Positions 3,971-49,621 of a DNA stretch of 64,000 bases are shown piece by piece. Under the pieces are notes generated by a model that worked only from the letters and a program-made list of their open reading frames with translations, was not told where the DNA came from and searched no databases. The translations under genes and the position numbers were made by a program. The stretch covers positions 9,743-73,742 of the forward strand of contig CALKLF010000042.1 of NCBI GenBank assembly GCA_937992175.1. The letters run 5' to 3'. Every line of letters starts with the position of its first letter. Positions within the stretch are counted from its first letter, which is position 1. The stretch is from an uncultured Fimbriimonadales bacterium (GTDB lineage: Bacteria; Armatimonadota; Fimbriimonadia; Fimbriimonadales; GBS-DC).

Positions 3971-5220
3971 GCTGGGTGATTGGCGTAGAGGGCGTGCGCG
4001 GTGCGTTTCCCGACGGCTGCGCGGTGACGATGGGCGTGTTCGATGGCGTGCATCGGGGGCATGCCACGCTCATTGAGGCGACCACACGCTGGGCGCACGC
4101 CCATGGCGTCCCCGCCGTCGCGCTGACCTTCGACCCGCACCCCGCCGCCGTCCTCGCGCCGCGCCATCGCCCACCGATGCTCTGCCCGCTCGCCCACCGC
4201 GTGGAGCGACTGCTGCAGCAGGGCATCGACTGCGTGGTCGTGCAGCCCTTTACACAGGCGTTCGCGCAGCTCTCGCCCGAAGCGTTTATCGAGGAGGTGC
4301 TGAGGCGCGACCTGAACGCCTGTGCGGTGGTGGTCGGCGACGACTTTCGTTTCGGGCGCGGGCGCACAGGCAGCGTGGAGACCCTGCATCGCGCAGGAAC
4401 GCTTGAGGTCGTCACGGTCGACAGCGTCCTCGACGAATCGGGCGAGCGTATCTCTTCCACGCGCATTCGGGAACTGATTCTGGCGGGGCAGCTGGAGCAG
4501 GCGAACGCGCTGCTGGGCGAGCCGCTCTATTGGACAGGCGTCGTGACGCGCGGCGATGGGCGCGGACGCGGCTTCGGCTACCCGACAGCAAACCTCACAC
4601 CACCGGAGCCGCTGATTACGCCGCTGGAGGGGGTGTATGCGTGTGTGGCGTATGTGTGCCCTCACCCCCCTGCCTTCTTCTCACACGGCGGGGGGGACGA
4701 GAGAGGTACAACGCTTGAGTCCCACACCTCCTATCTTTCTGACCTCACCCCCCTGTCCCCCCTCTCCGTAAACGGAGAGGGGGGAGACGCCGCCCCAGGC
4801 GCAGGCGGCTCCCCCTCTCCGTCTACAGAGGGGGCGCTGGGGGGTGAGGTCGAAAAGGCGCAGGAAAACGAGGCTTTTGTCTCGGAGGTCGAGGCGGACT
4901 CGCGCACCCTTGTTAGGAAAGCAGACTCCCCTCTCCCACGGCGTGGGAGAGGGGGGCAAGGGGGTGAGGGCTACAAAGTCTACCCCGCCGCCGTCAGCGT
5001 CGGTAAGCCGCCGATGTTCGAAAACGCCCGCGGGCGCGTGGAGGCGTACTTGATCGACTTTCCCGATCACGATTTGTATGGGCGCGTCGTCGCGTTGCAG
5101 TTCCTGAAACGCCTGCGCCCGCAACAACGATTCGAAAGCGTCGATGCGCTGCTGGAGCAGATGGCGCGCGATGTCGAACAGACGCGCCAAATTGCGCAGG
5201 AGGTACAATCGGGGCGATGA
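3967..5220 (+). CDS. ribF: Bifunctional riboflavin kinase / FMN adenylyltransferase, carrying a ~105-aa in-frame repeat-derived insertion
   Basis: ATG 3967 overlaps the truB stop (ATGA). GVFDGVHRGHATLI, the FAD synthetase half and an RFK half (GVYA ... YPAAVSVGKPPMF ... EAYLIDF) are all present. The longer track ORF from 3709 is a truB-overlapping artefact. Confidence 0.88.
   Translation: MSWVIGVEGVRGAFPDGCAVTMGVFDGVHRGHATLIEATTRWAHAHGVPAVALTFDPHPAAVLAPRHRPPMLCPLAHRVERLLQQGIDCVVVQPFTQAFAQLSPEAFIEEVLRRDLNACAVVVGDDFRFGRGRTGSVETLHRAGTLEVVTVDSVLDESGERISSTRIRELILAGQLEQANALLGEPLYWTGVVTRGDGRGRGFGYPTANLTPPEPLITPLEGVYACVAYVCPHPPAFFSHGGGDERGTTLESHTSYLSDLTPLSPLSVNGEGGDAAPGAGGSPSPSTEGALGGEVEKAQENEAFVSEVEADSRTLVRKADSPLPRRGRGGQGGEGYKVYPAAVSVGKPPMFENARGRVEAYLIDFPDHDLYGRVVALQFLKRLRPQQRFESVDALLEQMARDVEQTRQIAQEVQSGR
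4658..4971. mobile_element. MITE-like family-C repeat inserted inside ribF without breaking the frame
   Basis: Terminal inverted repeats GCCCTCACCCCCCTGCC (4658-4674) and GGCAAGGGGGTGAGGGC (4955-4971). Internal perfect hairpins include CCCCCCTCTCCG-taaa-CGGAGAGGGGGG and CCCCTCTCCCAC-ggc-GTGGGAGAGGGG. Confidence 0.65.
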
Positions 5221-5936
5221 CCATCCGGGCAGAGAACCTGAAACGCGCCTATCGCAAGCGGCTCGTCGTGCGCGATGTGTCGCTGGAAGTCGGGCAGGGC
5301 GAGGTCGTCGGGCTGCTTGGTCCCAACGGCGCGGGCAAGACCACTACCTTCTATATGATTGTGGGGCTAATCCGCCCGCATGGGGGGCGCGTGTTTGTGG
5401 GCGAGCAGGAGATTACTCGCCTGCCGATGTACCAGCGCGCGCGGCTTGGACTGGGCTACCTCCCGCAGGAGGCGTCCGTCTTTCGGCAACTGACCGTCGA
5501 GCAGAATCTGTTGCTGGTGATGGAGATGCGCGGCGTCCCGCCGCAGACCCGACGGGAACGCGCCGAGCAGCTGATGGAGGAGTTTCATATCGCCCACCTG
5601 CGCCACAGCAAAGGCTACGCGCTGTCGGGTGGCGAGCGACGGCGCGTGGAGATCGCCCGCGCCCTCGCCCTGCAACCCGCCTTCCTGCTACTCGACGAGC
5701 CGTTCACAGGAATCGACCCCAAGACCATCGAGGAGCTTCAGGAGATTATTCTCGGCTTGCGCCAACGCAACATCGGCGTGCTGATTACCGACCACAATGT
5801 GAGCGCCACGCTGCGCATCACCGATCGGAGCTATATTCTGGCGGACGGCGTGATTGTGGCGCAGGGCGCGCCCGAAGAGGTCATTGCCAATCCGCTGGCA
5901 CGGAAGTATTACTTTGGGGAGAGTTTCGAACTATAG
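5217..5936 (+). CDS. lptB: LPS export ABC transporter ATP-binding protein
   Basis: 239 aa. GPNGAGKTTTFYMIVGL, YLPQEASVFRQLTV, LSGGERRRVEIARAL and LLLDEPF are typical of LptB. The start overlaps the ribF stop (ATGA). Confidence 0.9.
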   Translation: MTIRAENLKRAYRKRLVVRDVSLEVGQGEVVGLLGPNGAGKTTTFYMIVGLIRPHGGRVFVGEQEITRLPMYQRARLGLGYLPQEASVFRQLTVEQNLLLVMEMRGVPPQTRRERAEQLMEEFHIAHLRHSKGYALSGGERRRVEIARALALQPAFLLLDEPFTGIDPKTIEELQEIILGLRQRNIGVLITDHNVSATLRITDRSYILADGVIVAQGAPEEVIANPLARKYYFGESFEL

Positions 5937-15560: not shown

Positions 15561-15575
15561 GCGATTGATGGAGAG

Positions 15576-15650
<75 letters not shown>

Positions 15651-31691: not shown

Positions 31692-32195
31692 ATGAACCGC
31701 ACAAAACTGGCGATTGGGCTGGGTGTCGCGATTGCGCTGCTGATTGGCGTGCGTATCTTCGTCCTGTCGGCGACGCCGAAAGAGGTCGACCCGCGCACGC
31801 GCATTCAGCAGATGTTCGCCGAGGGCAAGCAGGCGTTCGAAAACGAGGATATCGACGGCATGCTTCAATTCGTCGCTGATGAGTTCAGCTTCGGTAACCT
31901 GAACAAACAGCAGCTGCGCTACCGACTGGCACAGTTGTTCAAGCAGTCCGAGAACATCCGCGCCGAGCTGGGCGAGTTGCAAATTGAAGTGTTCGCGGGG
32001 CGCGTGCTGGTGCGCACCACCGTTCGAGTCGTCTCGCGCGACCCGCAGTCGCCAAGCGGCGTCAATACCCAGGATTTCGGCGTGGTGGAGTTCGAATTCC
32101 GCAAGTTCCCGCAGCGCAAATGGCTGATTATTCAATACGAAGACTGGCGGCTGGTGCGCATCGAAGCGCCACAGGCGGCGGAGATCTCGCTATGA
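31692..32195 (+). CDS. Membrane-anchored NTF2/SnoaL-like (DUF4440-like) protein
   Basis: N-terminal TM LAIGLGVAIALLIGVRIFVL followed by a ~130-aa alpha+beta pattern. The start lies 3 nt after the upstream stop. Confidence 0.5.
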   Translation: MNRTKLAIGLGVAIALLIGVRIFVLSATPKEVDPRTRIQQMFAEGKQAFENEDIDGMLQFVADEFSFGNLNKQQLRYRLAQLFKQSENIRAELGELQIEVFAGRVLVRTTVRVVSRDPQSPSGVNTQDFGVVEFEFRKFPQRKWLIIQYEDWRLVRIEAPQAAEISL

Positions 32196-33196
32196 CGGCG
32201 GAGTTGCAGGCAAAGTACGAACAGCTGCAGGCGATTCTGCGCGAGATGGGCGCAGTGATCGTCGGGCTGTCAGGCGGCGTGGACAGCACGCTGCTCGTGA
32301 AAGTCGCTTACCAGACGCTGGGCGACCGATGTCTGGCGGTGATTGGCAAATCGGAAGCGTTCCCTGAGGGTGAAATCGAGCAGGCGATGCAACTGGCGCA
32401 GCAAATCGGCGTGCGGGTACGCATCGTCCCCACGCATGAATTGCAAAACCCCCTGTTTCAGGTGAACCGACCTGACCGCTGCTATCACTGCAAGACCGAG
32501 CTGTTCGGCGTGCTGCGGCGCGTCGCCGACGAGGAGAGGATCCCGTGGATTGCCGACGGGACGCACGCAGACGACACGAGCGACTATCGGCCTGGACTGC
32601 GCGCCGCGCAGGAGCAGGGCGTGCGCGCGCCGCTGCTCGAGGCGGGATTCACCAAGGCGGACATCCGCGCGCTGGCAAAACATCTGGGTCTGCCCATCTG
32701 GGACAAGCCCTCCTTCGCCTGCCTCTCCAGTCGGTTCTCCTACGGCACGGTCATCACGCGCGAACTGCTCCAGAAAGTGGACCGTGCGGAACGCTACCTG
32801 CGCGAGCTAGGGTTCCGTCAAGTGCGCGTGCGCCACCACGATACGATTCTGCGCATCGAGGTCGAGCCACAGGACTTCGAGCGCGTGCTGCGCCACGCGT
32901 CCGACATCGTGGCGCACATACAATCACTCGGCTACCTCTATGTTGCGCTGGACTTAGAGGGCTACCGTTCAGGCAAGATGAACGATGAGCTGCGGGCGCG
33001 TCTACCGATGCACGATGGGCTTACACCTCCACCCGCAGTGCAGCAGCAGGCGGCATCTTCGCTGCGCGAATCGCCGGCAGAATCGTCGCTACGACCGTCA
33101 CCACCACGCCGACCGCCATCGCCTGACCCAGCAGCCCAAGCAGCTCGAGCAGAGTCGCCGCGCCGAACACCCCCGAACCCAGCCGAAACAGGTTAA
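32192..33196 (+). CDS. larE: PP-loop ATP-utilising enzyme, LarE-type sulfur transferase family (TIGR00268-like), with ~70-aa low-complexity C-terminal extension
   Basis: VIVGLSGGVDSTLL (SGGxDS PP-loop), CYHCK and LGYLYVALDLEGYRSGKMN. The start overlaps the upstream stop (ATGA). The tail is antisense to the permease gene. Confidence 0.7.
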   Translation: MTAELQAKYEQLQAILREMGAVIVGLSGGVDSTLLVKVAYQTLGDRCLAVIGKSEAFPEGEIEQAMQLAQQIGVRVRIVPTHELQNPLFQVNRPDRCYHCKTELFGVLRRVADEERIPWIADGTHADDTSDYRPGLRAAQEQGVRAPLLEAGFTKADIRALAKHLGLPIWDKPSFACLSSRFSYGTVITRELLQKVDRAERYLRELGFRQVRVRHHDTILRIEVEPQDFERVLRHASDIVAHIQSLGYLYVALDLEGYRSGKMNDELRARLPMHDGLTPPPAVQQQAASSLRESPAESSLRPSPPRRPPSPDPAAQAARAESPRRTPPNPAETG

Positions 33197-33647
33197 TTAG
33201 AAACACCAAACCCCAGCCCACCAGAAAGCCAATCGCCGACGCCACGACGCCCAGCATCCCCGCCTCCAGAAAGAACAGCTTCACCACAAACGAATCGAGC
33301 GCACCCAGACACTTCATCGTGCCAATCTCTTTATAACGCTCCGTGACCGCCATCAGCATGGAGTTGGAGATGCCGACGGTGGACATCAGCAGGCTCATCA
33401 CCACGAGCCAGGTCTGGCGCGTGGCGGCTTCAACGGCGGCGGGGTCGTTCGGGTCTAACGGCGGCGCGTAGAGCGCGGCGGCGCGCACCGCCGTGAAAAA
33501 CGCAATCCCCAGCATCACCCCCGCCGCGGTAATCAACGCCCGCAGGAACCGTACCCGTATGTTCAGCAGGCTGATCCGAAACGCCACCGACAGTGGCAGC
33601 TGTACCTGCTTGCGTATCGCGTCCCGTCCCGAACTCGTGGCGCTCAT
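33021..33647 (-). CDS. Minimal FtsX-type (MacB/LolC-like) ABC permease, four TM segments, almost no extracytoplasmic domain
   Basis: 208 aa. SNSMLMAVTERYKEIGTMKCLGALDSFVVKLFFLEAGMLG ... LPAIRAAKMPPAAALRVEV is the FtsX-domain signature. Only ~25 residues lie between TM1 and TM2. Confidence 0.75.
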   Translation of the reverse strand: MSATSSGRDAIRKQVQLPLSVAFRISLLNIRVRFLRALITAAGVMLGIAFFTAVRAAALYAPPLDPNDPAAVEAATRQTWLVVMSLLMSTVGISNSMLMAVTERYKEIGTMKCLGALDSFVVKLFFLEAGMLGVVASAIGFLVGWGLVFLINLFRLGSGVFGAATLLELLGLLGQAMAVGVVVTVVATILPAIRAAKMPPAAALRVEV

Positions 33648-34033
33648 AGTCGTTTCTTCGAATAGACGATAAATCCACGCCGTGAGAGCGTGTTCAAAAA
33701 CGCGAACAGTGAATACTCCGCCTCGCGCCGCTCCAGCTTGAACTGCTGCACGAGCCGTTGCACTATCGCGTCCACCTGATGCCGTCCGTCGCACAGCGCC
33801 CAGACCGCGCTGCCAATCTCGTCCAGCTCGATGCGATGTTCGTGGGGGAGCTTGAAAATCCTGCTGAACCAGCCGAACAGCCCGCGCGGTTGGAGAGGCA
33901 CAATCAAAATATAAACGCCGTCCGCGTTTTGCTCGGACCTTACTGCGGCGTTGCGCAGGGGATAGAGGCGCAGCACCTGTTTGCGGTCTATCTGCGGCGG
34001 CGCGTTGCGCCGAAAGAGCCGTCTCAACAACAT
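33644..34033 (-). CDS. PqqD-family protein (RiPP-recognition-element-like peptide chaperone)
   Basis: 129 aa. IELDEIGSAVWALCDGRHQVDAIVQRLVQQFKLERREAEYSLFAFLNTLSRRGFI fits the PqqD winged-helix pattern. Both gene junctions overlap. Confidence 0.7.
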   Translation of the reverse strand: MLLRRLFRRNAPPQIDRKQVLRLYPLRNAAVRSEQNADGVYILIVPLQPRGLFGWFSRIFKLPHEHRIELDEIGSAVWALCDGRHQVDAIVQRLVQQFKLERREAEYSLFAFLNTLSRRGFIVYSKKRL

Positions 34034-34962
34034 ATCGTGCGCGCCATCACCTCCTCGATGAGGTTCGAGCGGAACGGCGAGAAGTGCTGAATGTGAAACA
34101 CTGTGTTGCGCTCTTTGCACAGCCACGCGACGGCGCGCACGCGCCACGCGGGCAAGCGCAATCGCAACGGGCTGACGACGCACTCGGTCAACAGCGCGCC
34201 CCACCCCAGCCGCGACTGCAAATGCACGCCGAAGTCGTTTTCGCTCCATGTGAAGGGCTCACGCGCGCCGCGCCAGCCCCGCCAGCGCAGCCAGTAATCG
34301 ACCCACTCGGCGAATTCGTAGCCCTTCGTGAGTTGCTCCGCGCGGGCGACGCGCTCAATCAGCAACCGCTCATGGCGACGGCTCAGCGTCAGGCGCGTCT
34401 GACCCGTCAGCACCTGCGATTTTTCGAGGCGAAAATCGGCGGGCGCGGCAGTCTGCAGCCCGTACAGGCTCCATTCCACCCATCCGTCCTCGTCAGGGGC
34501 GACACGCAGGCTCTCGAAAATCGGACGCGCCAGCTGAAACAGCGCATCGTGTCGGGAAGCGGAGCGGAGCTGAATCAGCACAATCGTGTGATGGTCGGGG
34601 TAGCGTTGAATGCGTCCGACAGCGCGCTCGTCCGAACGCCAGCGGAACTCGATGCAGTTCTCGTCAACGGGGTGGAGCGTTCCTGCGAAGGGCTGACGCG
34701 CCTTGTGCTTCGCGCGTTCCAGCTGCTTGAGGAACTGCTGCAGCACATAGTTCAGGTCGGTTTTACGGCGGGAGCGCGTCCACTTGAGGTCAATTTCTGC
34801 GCTCTGGGGCGAGCCGATTTGGATGAACCCCTCGCGCCACTCCCCCGAATAGCCCGTGAGGAACCAGTCGGGCGGCGTATTCAGCCGAACGCCCTGCCAG
34901 CCGATCAGCGTGGGCAGGGCAGGAGAGGCTTTGGAGACGCCTGCCTGACTGCCGGGTTTCAC
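34024..34962 (-). CDS. Hypothetical 312-aa protein, no recognised family, apparent internal two-fold repeat
   Basis: GTG 34962 overlaps the tatA stop (GTGA). The soluble W/R-rich sequence has halves that share a W-x-G-x-L-x(3)-P-x-D-[FW]-x-L pattern by eye. Confidence 0.55.
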   Translation of the reverse strand: MKPGSQAGVSKASPALPTLIGWQGVRLNTPPDWFLTGYSGEWREGFIQIGSPQSAEIDLKWTRSRRKTDLNYVLQQFLKQLERAKHKARQPFAGTLHPVDENCIEFRWRSDERAVGRIQRYPDHHTIVLIQLRSASRHDALFQLARPIFESLRVAPDEDGWVEWSLYGLQTAAPADFRLEKSQVLTGQTRLTLSRRHERLLIERVARAEQLTKGYEFAEWVDYWLRWRGWRGAREPFTWSENDFGVHLQSRLGWGALLTECVVSPLRLRLPAWRVRAVAWLCKERNTVFHIQHFSPFRSNLIEEVMARTICC

Positions 34963-35132
34963 TTCTGCGCCTGTTCCGCCTCGTCTTCGGTACGCGTCGC
35001 GCGGCGGAACTCCGTCAGAGCCTCCCCAATCGATCGCGCCAGCGCAGGCAACCGCGACGCGCCAAACAGCACCAGCACGATGACCAGGAGAATCATCCAC
35101 TCCTGCGTACCCATGTATCCCAGAATCGGCAT
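34959..35132 (-). CDS. tatA: Twin-arginine translocase subunit TatA/E
   Basis: 57 aa: MPILGYMGTQEWMILLVIVLVLFGASRLPALARSIGEALTEFRRATR. GGAGG SD, with a GGGGTATACT -10-like box upstream on the minus strand. Confidence 0.8.
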   Translation of the reverse strand: MPILGYMGTQEWMILLVIVLVLFGASRLPALARSIGEALTEFRRATRTEDEAEQAQK

Positions 35133-35209
35133 GCTTGGTTTTCCTCCAATGGATAGTATACCCCATCGTGCATCGCGTCCGCACATGGAAGGTATAACTA
35201 TGTTCCTGA

Positions 35210-35686
35210 ATGCGCGAGTCGGGCTTTGATATTCAGCGGGTGATTGAACTCATCGCCGACCGTAAAATCGAGGAGGCGATTCAGGAGGGCAAGTTCGACG
35301 ATTTGCCGGGCAAGGGTAAGCCGTTGCCTCTAGACGAGGAGTGGTTCGCCCCGCCTGAGCTGCGTCCCGCCATCCGCCTGCTGAAAAGTGCGGGCGTGCT
35401 GCCAGACTGGCTGGAGCGCGCTCGTGAGATTGAGCGACTGCGCGAAGATGCCATGCGCCTGTGGCGCATCGCCGAACGCGAGTATCCCCGCGCCTGCCAG
35501 CTCAGCGCGGAGCGCTTCGTCGAATGGCGCGAGGCAAGCTGGCAGGGGATTGTGACCCTCATGCAGCGCGTGAACAGCCTGATTTTAGCGTACAACTGCA
35601 CCGCGCCCGCCAACGCCAACCCGCAAATACCGTTCCAGATCGAGGCGGAGCGGGAGCGGTTTTATGCTCAGTTCGAACAGGAATAG
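35210..35686 (+). CDS. DUF1992 (DnaJC28-like) domain protein
   Basis: IADRKIEEAIQEGKFDDLPGKGKPLPLDEE is the DUF1992 signature. TATAAC at 35193-35198 lies 11 nt before the ATG. Confidence 0.7.
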   Translation: MRESGFDIQRVIELIADRKIEEAIQEGKFDDLPGKGKPLPLDEEWFAPPELRPAIRLLKSAGVLPDWLERAREIERLREDAMRLWRIAEREYPRACQLSAERFVEWREASWQGIVTLMQRVNSLILAYNCTAPANANPQIPFQIEAERERFYAQFEQE

Positions 35687-47763: not shown

Positions 47764-47845
47764 GCCGCTGCCCGCCGCTTGCCTGCATTCCCTCGCGGGG
47801 AAGGTATACTATCTCTCGCCCCGTTCGCAGGGCAGGAGAGAGCCT

Positions 47846-49621
47846 ATGGCGGAAGTGCGCTCGATTTTAGCGACCGACTGCGGCAGCACGACCACGAAAG
47901 CGATACTGATTGAGAAGCGCGGCGAGGAGTACCGACTCATCCATCGCGGCGAGGCGCCTACCACTGTCGAAGCCCCCTTCGACGATGTGACCATCGGTGT
48001 GTTGAATGCCACGCGCGAACTAGAAGACCTTACCGAGCGCGAATTGATACAGGACGGCAAGATTCTCACGCCCCAGCTCGACGCAAAGCGCGGCGTGGAT
48101 TTGTACCTATCCACCTCCAGCGCGGGCGGCGGACTGCAGATGATGGTGATGGGCGTAGTGCGCCAGATGTCCGCCGAGAGCGCGCAACGCGCCGCGTTAG
48201 GCGCAGGCGCAATCATCATGGATGTCATCGCCATCGACGACGGGCGCAAAGATTATCAGAAAATTCAACGCCTGCGCGAGCTGCGCCCCGACATCGTGTT
48301 GCTCTCTGGCGGCACGGATGGTGGCACGATTACACACCTGGTGGAACTCGGCGAACTGCTCATCGCGGCAGACCCGCGCCCACGCTTCGGCACGATGAAC
48401 CTGCCGGTGATTTTTGCAGGCAACAAGGACGCCCGCGAGGAAATCCAACACCTGCTCGGAGAGCGTTTCGACCTGCGCATCGTGGACAACCTGCGCCCCG
48501 AACTGGATCGCGAGAATCTCGGTCCCGCCCGCGAAGCCATTCACGAACTGTTTCTTGAGCATGTGATGCAGCAAGCCCCCGGCTACTCCAAGCTGATGAC
48601 TTGGACCTCCGCCGACATCATGTCCACCCCGAACGCCGTCGGCAAGATTATGGTGACCATCGCCGAGCAGCGCGGGATTAATATTCTGGGCGTGGACATC
48701 GGTGGCGCGACGACCGATGTGTTCTCGGTGTTCGACGGCAACTACACGCGCACGGTGAGCGCGAACCTCGGCATGAGCTACTCCATCTGTAATGTGATGC
48801 TGGAGGCGGGCGTCCAGAACATCTGTCGCTGGCTGCCGTTCGATATCGAGGAGTACGAGGTGCGCAACCGCCTGCGCAACAAGATGATCCGCCCCACGAC
48901 TATCCCGCAGACCTACGAAGATTTGCTTCTGGAGCAGGCGGTGGCGCGCGAGGCGCTGCGTCTGGCGTTCATCCATCACAAGCAACTCGCGCGCGGACTG
49001 AAAGGCGTGCAGCAGCAGCGCACCATCGGCGAGGCGCTGGAACAGGCGGAAACGGGCAAGACGCTCGTGAACATGATGAAACTGAACATGATTGTGGGCA
49101 GCGGTGGTGTGTTGAGCCACGCGCCCAAACGCGCTCAATCCGCCCTGATGATGATGGACGCCTACCAGCCGGAAGGCGTGACGATGCTGGCGGTGGACTC
49201 GATCTTCATGATGCCCCAGCTCGGCGTGCTGTCCACGGTTCATCCCGAGGCGGCGGCGCAGGTGTTCGACCGCGACTGCCTGATTCGGCTTGGCTCCTGC
49301 GTCGCGCCAGTCGGACAGGGCAAGGAGGGCGAACCGTGCGTCACGATTGAATACAACGGCAAGAGCGAGACCTTCCGCTACGGCGAGCTGCGCGTGTTGC
49401 CGCTGGGCGTCGGGGAGACCCTGCAGGCGACCATCCGTCCCGCGCGCAACTTCGATGTCGGCGCAGGGAAAGGCAAGTCGGTGGAGGCGACACTGGAAGG
49501 AGGCGTCGTCGGCGTGGTGGTCGATGCGCGGGGACGACCGCTGCAATTACCTCCCGATAGCCTCATGCGTCGCCAAAAACTGCTGGAGTGGATGAGCGCG
49601 CTGGGGCTGCCGAAACCATAA
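47846..49621 (+). CDS. GlmL/MutL-family ASKHA-fold ATPase (glutamate-mutase-accessory-like), long form
   Basis: ILATDCGSTTTKAILIE, LLSGGTDGG and ILGVDIGGATTDVFSV. No mutase genes are adjacent. Confidence 0.6.
   Translation: MAEVRSILATDCGSTTTKAILIEKRGEEYRLIHRGEAPTTVEAPFDDVTIGVLNATRELEDLTERELIQDGKILTPQLDAKRGVDLYLSTSSAGGGLQMMVMGVVRQMSAESAQRAALGAGAIIMDVIAIDDGRKDYQKIQRLRELRPDIVLLSGGTDGGTITHLVELGELLIAADPRPRFGTMNLPVIFAGNKDAREEIQHLLGERFDLRIVDNLRPELDRENLGPAREAIHELFLEHVMQQAPGYSKLMTWTSADIMSTPNAVGKIMVTIAEQRGINILGVDIGGATTDVFSVFDGNYTRTVSANLGMSYSICNVMLEAGVQNICRWLPFDIEEYEVRNRLRNKMIRPTTIPQTYEDLLLEQAVAREALRLAFIHHKQLARGLKGVQQQRTIGEALEQAETGKTLVNMMKLNMIVGSGGVLSHAPKRAQSALMMMDAYQPEGVTMLAVDSIFMMPQLGVLSTVHPEAAAQVFDRDCLIRLGSCVAPVGQGKEGEPCVTIEYNGKSETFRYGELRVLPLGVGETLQATIRPARNFDVGAGKGKSVEATLEGGVVGVVVDARGRPLQLPPDSLMRRQKLLEWMSALGLPKP

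Follow-up and report, generated by a model that had tools for sequence, protein, structure and literature searches.

A reduced, TatA-linked form of an unannotated FtsX-type ABC cluster in an uncultured Fimbriimonadales bacterium

Results

The locus

We examined a stretch of 64,000 nucleotides (nt) from contig CALKLF010000042.1 of an uncultured Fimbriimonadales bacterium (the window) and, within it, a cassette of four genes that lie head to tail on the minus strand. They encode, in order, a TatA protein, a 312-residue unannotated protein (unk), a PqqD-like protein, and a minimal FtsX-type permease (mini-FtsX; Table 1). The original prediction, made from the letters of the sequence, held that the four genes overlap and form a single coupled unit, and direct reading verified their coordinates and all three junctions. 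The overlaps are 4, 10, and 4 nt long: the tatA stop and unk start share GTGA (34962..34959), the unk stop and PqqD-like start share ATGTTGTTGA (34033..34024), and the PqqD-like stop and FtsX start share ATGA (33647..33644). A 77-nt gap separates tatA from a divergent gene for a DJC28_CD-domain protein and holds the two candidate expression signals. The predicted Shine-Dalgarno sequence ahead of tatA is there. The predicted −10-like box is also present as a hexamer, but it matches at only five of six positions, and a consensus scan of positions 32800 to 35400 found no (0) sigma-70-type promoter sites; a tatA promoter at this hexamer is unproven. The same interval has 3 terminator-like sites versus 2.0 expected by chance, which is no excess.

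Table 1. Positions of the cassette genes and signals in the window and of two partner genes in loci from relatives
Feature	Sequence	Position	Strand	Description
tatA	Window	34959-35132	minus	57 aa, TatA/E family
unk	Window	34024-34962	minus	312 aa, soluble, unannotated family
PqqD-like gene	Window	33644-34033	minus	129 aa, PqqD-like, similar to RiPP recognition elements
mini-FtsX gene	Window	33021-33647	minus	208 aa, FtsX-type permease, four transmembrane helices
−10-like hexamer TATACT	Window	35160..35155	minus	candidate, 5/6 match; GGGGTATACT is 35164..35155
Shine-Dalgarno GGAGG	Window	35147..35143	minus	10 nt ahead of tatA ATG
big	L016	855-5441		Peptidase_M28 and FtsX domains
big	L013	65-4288		Peptidase_M28 and FtsX domains
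big	L051	16-4539		Peptidase_M28 and FtsX domains
mid	L016	5572-7572		about 12 hydrophobic segments
mid	L013	4294-6429		about 12 hydrophobic segments
mid	L088	3592-5637		about 12 hydrophobic segments

Homologues of unk recovered by a word-indexed search all belong to Armatimonadota (Fimbriimonadales and HR15), with 41 to 89% identity. The order tatA-unk-PqqD-FtsX recurs in every context retrieved, with wholly different flanking genes, and the order and overlaps were the same in every relative examined, as expected of the single unit that had been predicted. This arrangement is far beyond chance. Among genomes of the window's own clade, in which the cassette has no adjacent ATPase gene (see below), at least 9 have intact open reading frames (ORFs) and have kept the overlaps. 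We computed the ratio of nonsynonymous to synonymous substitution rates (dN/dS) against five relatives, with dS of ∼0.25 to 1.35 within the window's clade and higher values against the more distant locus L004 (loci from other genomes carry labels beginning with L). The ratio was 0 to 0.08 for tatA (93 to 100% identity across the clade), 0.09 to 0.15 for unk, 0.10 to 0.25 for the PqqD-like gene, and 0.06 to 0.13 for the FtsX gene. Low dN/dS together with retained gene order indicates functional genes held together by selection. The four genes constitute a translationally coupled unit under purifying selection, predicted to be one operon. One locus of the clade (L020, 7001-7627) has an FtsX gene with no detectable tatA, unk, or PqqD-like gene upstream, which could reflect rearrangement, masked sequence, or misassembly.

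The wider cluster

To place the cassette among other genomes, we pulled loci from species-representative genomes by conserved permease motifs and scored the best 80 of at least 585 species genomes with hidden Markov models (HMMs) built in this analysis. Only loci with enough flanking sequence were counted, hence the varying denominators below. The best 80 came from Armatimonadota (Fimbriimonadales, Chthonomonadales, Abditibacterium, Capsulimonadaceae, and Armatimonas), Poribacteria, Latescibacterota, Hydrogenedentota, Nitrospirota, WS1, and Ratteibacteria, among others. A PqqD-like gene lies directly upstream of mini-FtsX in 65 of 73 species and unk lies upstream of it in 55 of 69, so the cassette genes co-occur across many genomes. 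Directly downstream, 69 of 77 species have a gene for a LolD/MacB-type ATPase of the ATP-binding cassette (ABC) class, with best model scores to LolD, MacB, DevA, and FtsE. Further upstream are genes for "mid," a polytopic protein of ∼680 residues (40/53 species), and "big," a permease of 1,100 to 1,540 residues with M28 and FtsX domains (35/48). TatA is found upstream of unk in 10 of 66 species. The usual order is big-mid-[slot]-unk-PqqD-miniFtsX-ATPase, and a second survey of 80 metagenome loci, seeded with the ATPase, returned the same architecture. Thus, unk, the PqqD-like gene, and mini-FtsX belong to a widespread unannotated cluster. The four-gene module of the original prediction is conserved, as the reduced form of a larger cluster that usually includes an ATPase.

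The junctions are tight across this range, although the distances are biased toward short gaps because the nearest in-frame start was picked. The PqqD-like and FtsX genes overlap by 4 nt in 28 of 66 species, and in 53 of the 66 they overlap or are separated by no more than 20 nt; the same holds for unk and the PqqD-like gene in 46 of 54.

In the protein "big," a Peptidase_M28 match at the N terminus is combined with several transmembrane (TM) helices and, close to the C terminus, an FtsX domain. It matches the PADLOC model CARF_m8--CARF_LolE_TM (E = 1.8e-53) over the TM, ectodomain, and FtsX region, so this partner family, which has no gene in the window, is already catalogued as a PADLOC candidate model. 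The CARF_m8 match suggests, at the level of sequence, a ligand-sensing cytoplasmic domain. No Pfam or NCBIfam model matches "mid," which is the second unannotated family of the cluster.

In one Armatimonadota subclade, the slot upstream of unk is occupied by TatA. Chthonomonadales have HX9DG-like membrane proteins there, one lineage has a STAS/zinc-ribbon protein, and in many lineages the slot is empty. We considered whether it encodes the client of the system and rejected this idea because so many lineages leave it empty. In Chthonomonadales (L024, 4634-5461; L025, 4131-5529; L029, 4657-5487; and others), the slot contains genes for one or two proteins anchored in the membrane, whose C-terminal motif is H-X9-DG-like (GRHxGxNNxxYxDGHV) and resembles that of DUF1559/pseudopilin-like proteins. 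In L011 (6454-6993), the product is a STAS protein (anti-sigma antagonist-like) that has a zinc ribbon at its N terminus.

The permease

In FtsX-domain permeases such as MacB, LolCE, and FtsX, TM1 and TM2 are normally separated by a large extracytoplasmic domain, and an ABC ATPase is adjacent. The window's permease matches the FtsX family (PF02687, 63.7 bits; cutoff, 25.5) and has four TM segments by hydropathy, with ∼20 residues linking TM1 and TM2 and no extracytoplasmic domain. The short loop had been singled out in the original prediction; it is real, but it is typical of the whole subfamily and not peculiar to this protein. The permease falls below the full-length cutoffs of the NCBIfam equivalogs MacB, LolC/E, FtsX, DevC, and ADOP. 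For instance, it scores 40.7 bits against MacB (cutoff, 966) and 30.5 bits against LolCE (cutoff, 362), with the C-terminal TM part alone aligning. The subfamily is marked by the motifs [YF][KRQ]EIGTMK and VGI[STI]N[SA]MLM and occurs in at least 585 species genomes from several phyla. One member of the same subfamily (L011, 8377-9771) has an insert of ∼250 residues between TM1 and TM2.

The unannotated protein

No Pfam model matched unk or any of 59 diverse relatives (60 members) at an E value of 0.01 or lower, no NCBIfam model matched unk, and a sequence search of the PDB with the family gave no match of note. The prediction that the 312-residue protein belongs to no characterized family therefore stands. 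An exhaustive profile search found 908 representatives of the family, clustered at 50%, of which 386 fall below 1e-10; a profile search for distant members in the word-indexed database added just 7 distant proteins. Hydropathy shows no TM segment and there is no signal peptide, which is consistent with a cytoplasmic location.

An alignment-based AlphaFold2 model of unk (predicted local distance difference test [pLDDT], 88; predicted template modeling score [pTM], 0.80) has two tandem alpha/beta domains, and its N- and C-terminal halves match each other in hhalign (probability, 97%; E = 1e-10). The two related halves noticed by eye are therefore real and are explained by internal duplication. 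In Foldseek comparisons against the PDB, the top matches of the model were CyanoP/PsbP, Mog1p, the type VI secretion immunity proteins TplEi (two-domain) and Tsi3, and Apa of Mycobacterium tuberculosis. The probability was 1.00 to 2lnj, 1eq6, 5h7y, and 9gnw_P, with target template modeling scores (TM-scores) of 0.34 to 0.54 over one domain. The checks on the model thus led to no well-characterized family with an unrelated role; on the predicted structure, unk is an internally duplicated Mog1/PsbP-like fold, at the level of fold only. Members of this fold are typically protein-binding modules.

The conserved motifs of unk are GWQG..VP.DW and W..W..YGL..VP..F.L. Paired Cys/His motifs also occur in the wider family, where each half has its own set: CxxC (121/124) plus DH (154/155), and HC (281/282) plus a C-terminal CH. 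These sets look like two structural metal sites. In the window's clade, most of these positions are replaced (Y121, H124, L281, and C312 for His), yet unk remains under purifying selection. The W/R-rich segment remarked on in the original prediction is present, but it is confined to the window's clade; W220 is its only residue conserved family-wide.

The PqqD-like protein

The PqqD-like protein matches PF05402 at 47.1 bits (gathering cutoff, 23.4), as had been called. Proteins with this fold include recognition elements (RREs) for ribosomally synthesized and posttranslationally modified peptides (RiPPs), and PqqD-fold/RRE domains bind short extended peptides. The family profile matches the lasso-peptide B1 protein 9x90_B (1.6e-8), TbiB1 (5v1u, 8e-8), and PqqD (3g2b, 3e-7). 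All of the NCBIfam models of RiPP-linked PqqD subfamilies score far below their cutoffs. The protein has a family-specific N-terminal extension of ∼55 residues and no TM segment by hydropathy; an AlphaFold2 model from the single sequence had a pLDDT of 49, too low for use. In the gene tables of the loci examined, no precursor-like ORF and no RiPP-modifying enzyme (radical SAM, YcaO, lasso cyclase or protease, or LanB/C) is conserved beside the cassette. Radical SAM genes occur in L004, L010, and L104 and are neither conserved nor adjacent to it.

TatA

The tatA call was borne out as well: the protein passes both PF02416 (66.4 bits versus 21; E = 1.3e-18) and TIGR01411 (63.2 versus 53.9). It has one TM segment (residues 13 to 31) followed by LFGASRLPALARSIGEALTEFRRA, with an FG hinge and an amphipathic helix. 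TatA normally travels with TatC. A search with an Escherichia coli TatC query detected no tatC across loci L001 to L096 or in the window, the latter in agreement with the original prediction. Linkage of TatA to unk and the PqqD-like protein is restricted to one deep Armatimonadota subclade, where it extends down to 24 to 26% unk identity, and is absent elsewhere. TatA is thus a lineage-specific addition outside the ancestral core.

In an HR15-like clade, the tatA-unk-PqqD trio persists downstream of rpmB-murB with no permease in cis (L181, 2256-3765; L003, 5789-8569). The PqqD-like gene is followed there by CcmA/CcmB-like ABC genes in one genome and by a convergent purL in another. We rejected the idea that this clade swapped FtsX for a CcmAB-type exporter because the second genome has no transporter at that position; the CcmA/B-like genes are probably mere neighbors.

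The missing ATPase

A profile of the cassette ATPases found no cognate ABC ATPase in the window. The only ABC ATPase there (5217-5936), whose Walker A region looks LptB-like, scores 107 bits, versus more than 400 for cassette ATPases. In a neighbor-joining tree of the permeases, the ATPase-less cassettes (the window, L006, L008, L010, L017, and L019 to L022) form one clade, sister to the ATPase-bearing L018 and L004. A single clade indicates one detachment event, and repeated loss of the ATPase was rejected on the basis of this tree.

Three metagenome loci (L102 to L104) encode ATPases that are ∼95% identical, over a trimmed alignment, to the cassette-linked ATPase of L018. In the ATPase tree, they are sister to the cassette-linked L004, L018, and L101, a pattern that mirrors the permease tree. 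In L103 and L104, the 7 kb upstream contains no tatA, unk, PqqD-like, or FtsX gene, and a URO-D-like gene follows the ATPase gene in each; L102 has just ∼0.7 kb of upstream sequence, so its orphan status is less certain. The L104 contig also has a MutL-like gene (PF13941) with 86% amino acid identity to window gene 47846-49621 (L104 2-478 versus window 47813-48289), which indicates that the contig comes from a close relative. Gene order beside the MutL-like gene differs between L104 and the window, so these close relatives are set apart by a local rearrangement.

On the simplest reading, the cognate ATPase departed from the operon a single time and has been kept in trans; for the window's own genome, this is deduced from its relatives. 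This reading fits the N-terminal coupling-helix region of the permease, which is nearly identical in ATPase-less and ATPase-bearing relatives. The original statement that no ATPase gene is nearby is true of the window, but close relatives keep orphan orthologues, so the gene appears to have been relocated rather than lost. We also observed that a 374-residue ORF with a weak Yae1_N match (L101, 5791-6915) sits between the FtsX and ATPase genes of L101, and that a XerC-like integrase gene follows the ATPase gene in L101 and L004 and may relate to the detachment.

Discussion

What the window contains is an FtsX-type ABC system in a form that is reduced, linked to TatA, and specific to its clade; the permease is minimal and the cytoplasmic partners are novel. 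We propose that unk and the PqqD-like protein pair up in the cytoplasm for recognition or as adaptors and are coupled to an ABC motor of the FtsX type with its ATPase in trans, and we put the probability of this reading at about 0.55. The permease and the trans-encoded ATPase would together make up a type VII (MacB/LolCDE/FtsEX-like) ABC motor. Overlapping stop and start codons would keep the synthesis of unk and the PqqD-like protein in step and at a fixed ratio with the permease. Through beta-strand addition, the RRE-like domain would take hold of an extended stretch of peptide, the tandem Mog1/PsbP-like protein may serve as a protein-binding scaffold, and the pair would deliver a client to the FtsX-ATPase machine or gate its activity. 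That the cassette would bind a peptide or protein substrate and move or process it, as in the original prediction, is an inference. Having no ectodomain, mini-FtsX would do its work inside the membrane or on the cytoplasmic side of it, either as a homodimer or as a "silent" partner of the giant FtsX permease where that protein is present. The client is probably not encoded beside the cassette, and TatA or twin-arginine translocation (Tat)-dependent traffic is a candidate link in this lineage.

The loci indicate a history in which tatA entered the slot in one Armatimonadota subclade and the operon then shrank stepwise from seven genes to five and on to the four of the window, with tatA-unk-PqqD alone in the HR15-like clade. 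In the window's clade, the ATPase gene appears to have left once, and it survives as an orphan beside a URO-D-like gene in close relatives.

Several points weigh against a recognition pair coupled to a trans-acting motor. The orphan ATPase is known from relatives and not from the window's genome, and it could serve another permease. The fold match of unk is weak (Foldseek E ∼3e-4 to 3e-3; identity, ∼10%; query TM-score, ∼0.32, with one domain aligning), and the loss of the Cys/His motifs in the window's clade hints at functional drift. Abditibacterium-type clusters have no unk, and a Jag-like gene precedes the PqqD-like gene there. Because the parts are separable both in those clusters and in the HR15-like clade, the picture of a pair plus a motor may be too tidy. 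Finally, "big" and "mid" are both missing from the 64 kb of the window, and the idea of a heterodimer may therefore not hold here.

A different function for the same parts is suggested by the composition of the full cluster, in which two FtsX-type permease genes accompany each ATPase gene in 35 of 48 species, a LolC/LolE/LolD-like ratio. The system could be an FtsEX-like transducer of signal or force, with ATP hydrolysis switching the M28 peptidase-like ectodomain of the giant permease, mini-FtsX acting as its heterodimer partner, and the soluble pair regulating the ATPase cycle; the window would then hold the regulatory half, with the other genes elsewhere. The domain layout of "big," with M28 at its N terminus and the CARF_m8--CARF_LolE_TM match in its C-terminal region, is consistent with such a role, and a permease without an ectodomain makes sense as a silent partner. 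However, the window has no giant or polytopic partner, and several lineages have tatA-unk-PqqD-FtsX-ATPase with no giant gene within 7 to 8 kb. We consider a transducer unlikely, if still worth keeping in view. Also rejected was a defense system: beyond a generic FtsX segment, PADLOC finds nothing for the window's four proteins, and no CRISPR genes or genes of CBASS, antiphage systems that signal through cyclic oligonucleotides, were seen near the cassette.

The position of tatA, as the first and translationally coupled gene, raises the question of whether the cassette is an accessory module of the Tat pathway. Here unk and the PqqD-like protein would be a chaperone, assembly, or quality-control pair for TatA or twin-arginine signal peptides, and the FtsX permease and ATPase would insert or extract the small membrane protein. 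The depth of the linkage in unk identity and the trio of the HR15-like clade, which stays together with neither FtsX nor an ABC transporter in cis, speak for this idea, as does the general affinity of RRE domains for short extended peptides. Eag chaperones (DUF1795, a related fold) hold the TM helices of secreted effectors, which also favors it. On the other hand, TatA is linked in so few species, the slot being mostly empty or filled by other genes, that a functional tie between TatA and the cassette is doubtful. TatA looks canonical and may be a housekeeping copy merely riding on a shared promoter, and tatC is never adjacent. We therefore regard an accessory module as quite improbable, and highly improbable in its more specific version, in which TatA or Tat signal peptides are the client that the pair recognizes and the FtsX/ATPase machine inserts, extracts, or remodels. 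If true, this version would add an ATP-driven accessory layer to the Tat pathway and give the RRE domain its first cellular role outside RiPPs. A RiPP export or maturation cluster, with the PqqD-like protein recognizing a leader peptide and FtsX exporting the ribosomal peptide product, would account for the PqqD Pfam match and the profile matches to lasso-peptide B1 proteins and PqqD, and ABC exporters are frequent in RiPP clusters. We give it very little credence, since the loci examined conserve neither precursor nor modifying enzyme, the flanks differ between lineages, the RiPP-linked PqqD models score so low, and the cluster is chromosomal, single copy, phylum-wide, and housekeeping-like. 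That the cassette is a decaying remnant or a chance operon whose gene order has no functional meaning seems scarcely credible. The adjacent ATPase is gone, the window has no partner genes, and unk has lost the CxxC/His motifs of its wider family; against this stand the strong purifying selection (dN/dS, 0.04 to 0.18) that acts on each of the four genes at dS of ∼0.25 to 1.35, the intact ORFs and conserved overlaps of the ATPase-less clade, and the orphan cognate ATPase retained in close relatives.

Taken singly, the class of transporter, the RRE domain, the unk fold, and TatA are familiar, and it is their combination that is new. The proposed motor resembles type VII ABC systems (MacAB-TolC, LolCDE, FtsEX, DevCA, and HrtBA) in its four-TM FtsX fold, its N-terminal amphipathic coupling helix, and the ER..EIG..K..GA motif of its cytoplasmic loop. 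Its relatives' clusters likewise include a dedicated LolD/MacB/FtsE-like ATPase, many with two permease genes per ATPase, as in LolC/LolE. In contrast to those systems, mini-FtsX has no Sabre/Porter-type extracytoplasmic domain, two conserved soluble partners (RRE-like and tandem Mog1/PsbP-like) have no counterpart there, the window's clade has no ATPase in cis, and no adaptor or outer membrane partner genes were seen. The PqqD-like protein belongs by HMM to the same winged-helix family (PF05402) as PqqD and TbiB1 (E = 1e-8 to 3e-7 to solved members), but it differs from these recognition elements in its constant pairing with an FtsX permease, the lack of a precursor or modifying enzyme, and its N-terminal extension. 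Similarly, each half of unk shares the alpha/beta sandwich of PsbP/CyanoP, Mog1p, TplEi/Tsi3, and Apa, and TplEi also has two domains, whereas unk is apparently cytoplasmic, has its own conserved motifs, and falls in no Pfam family (PsbP, Mog1, DUF1795, and DcrB included). The cassette TatA has the TM helix, FG hinge, and amphipathic helix of TatA/TatE and passes the TatA/E threshold; unlike the usual case, it is never beside tatC in the loci seen and is coupled to genes with no known Tat role.

The prediction that this association is undescribed agrees with what we found in Pfam, NCBIfam, PADLOC, and the searched literature. None of these databases has a model for unk or "mid," a literature search returned nothing on an association of PqqD, FtsX, and an ABC transporter, and searches on TatA with PqqD, M28 with FtsX, and CARF with LolE returned irrelevant material only. 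RRE/PqqD domains are taken to mark RiPP biosynthesis, and an RRE locked to an FtsX-type ABC machine across several phyla, with no RiPP genes nearby, points to a different cellular use of peptide recognition. Current thinking holds that the work of the type VII class is done by the extracytoplasmic domain; mini-FtsX, as a natural minimal FtsX fold, offers a test of the generality of the mechanotransmission model. Defining unk (908 clusters at 50% identity) and "mid" would bring annotation to genes of several hundred species at the least, and the stable linkage of tatA is a testable lead to a Tat-associated function in a poorly studied phylum.

Neighboring features of the window

The genes around the cassette in the window are unrelated and housekeeping in character, encoding the DJC28_CD protein, an ABC1 kinase, a phasin, an EF-G-like protein, a PP-loop ATPase, an aldehyde dehydrogenase, and a short-chain dehydrogenase/reductase. 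The convergent ORF of the PP-loop ATPase-like protein (32120-33196, plus strand; weak NAD_synthase match) overlaps the 3' end of the FtsX gene by 176 nt (33021-33196), its stop codon coming 176 nt into that opposite-strand gene. The last ∼70 residues of its product are rich in Pro, Ala, Ser, and Arg and resemble antisense read-through, not a folded domain. Rfam and tRNA scans found nothing inside or near the cassette, and the sole Rfam/ARAGORN match across the 64-kb window was a tRNA-Thr (CGT) at 15575-15649 on the plus strand.

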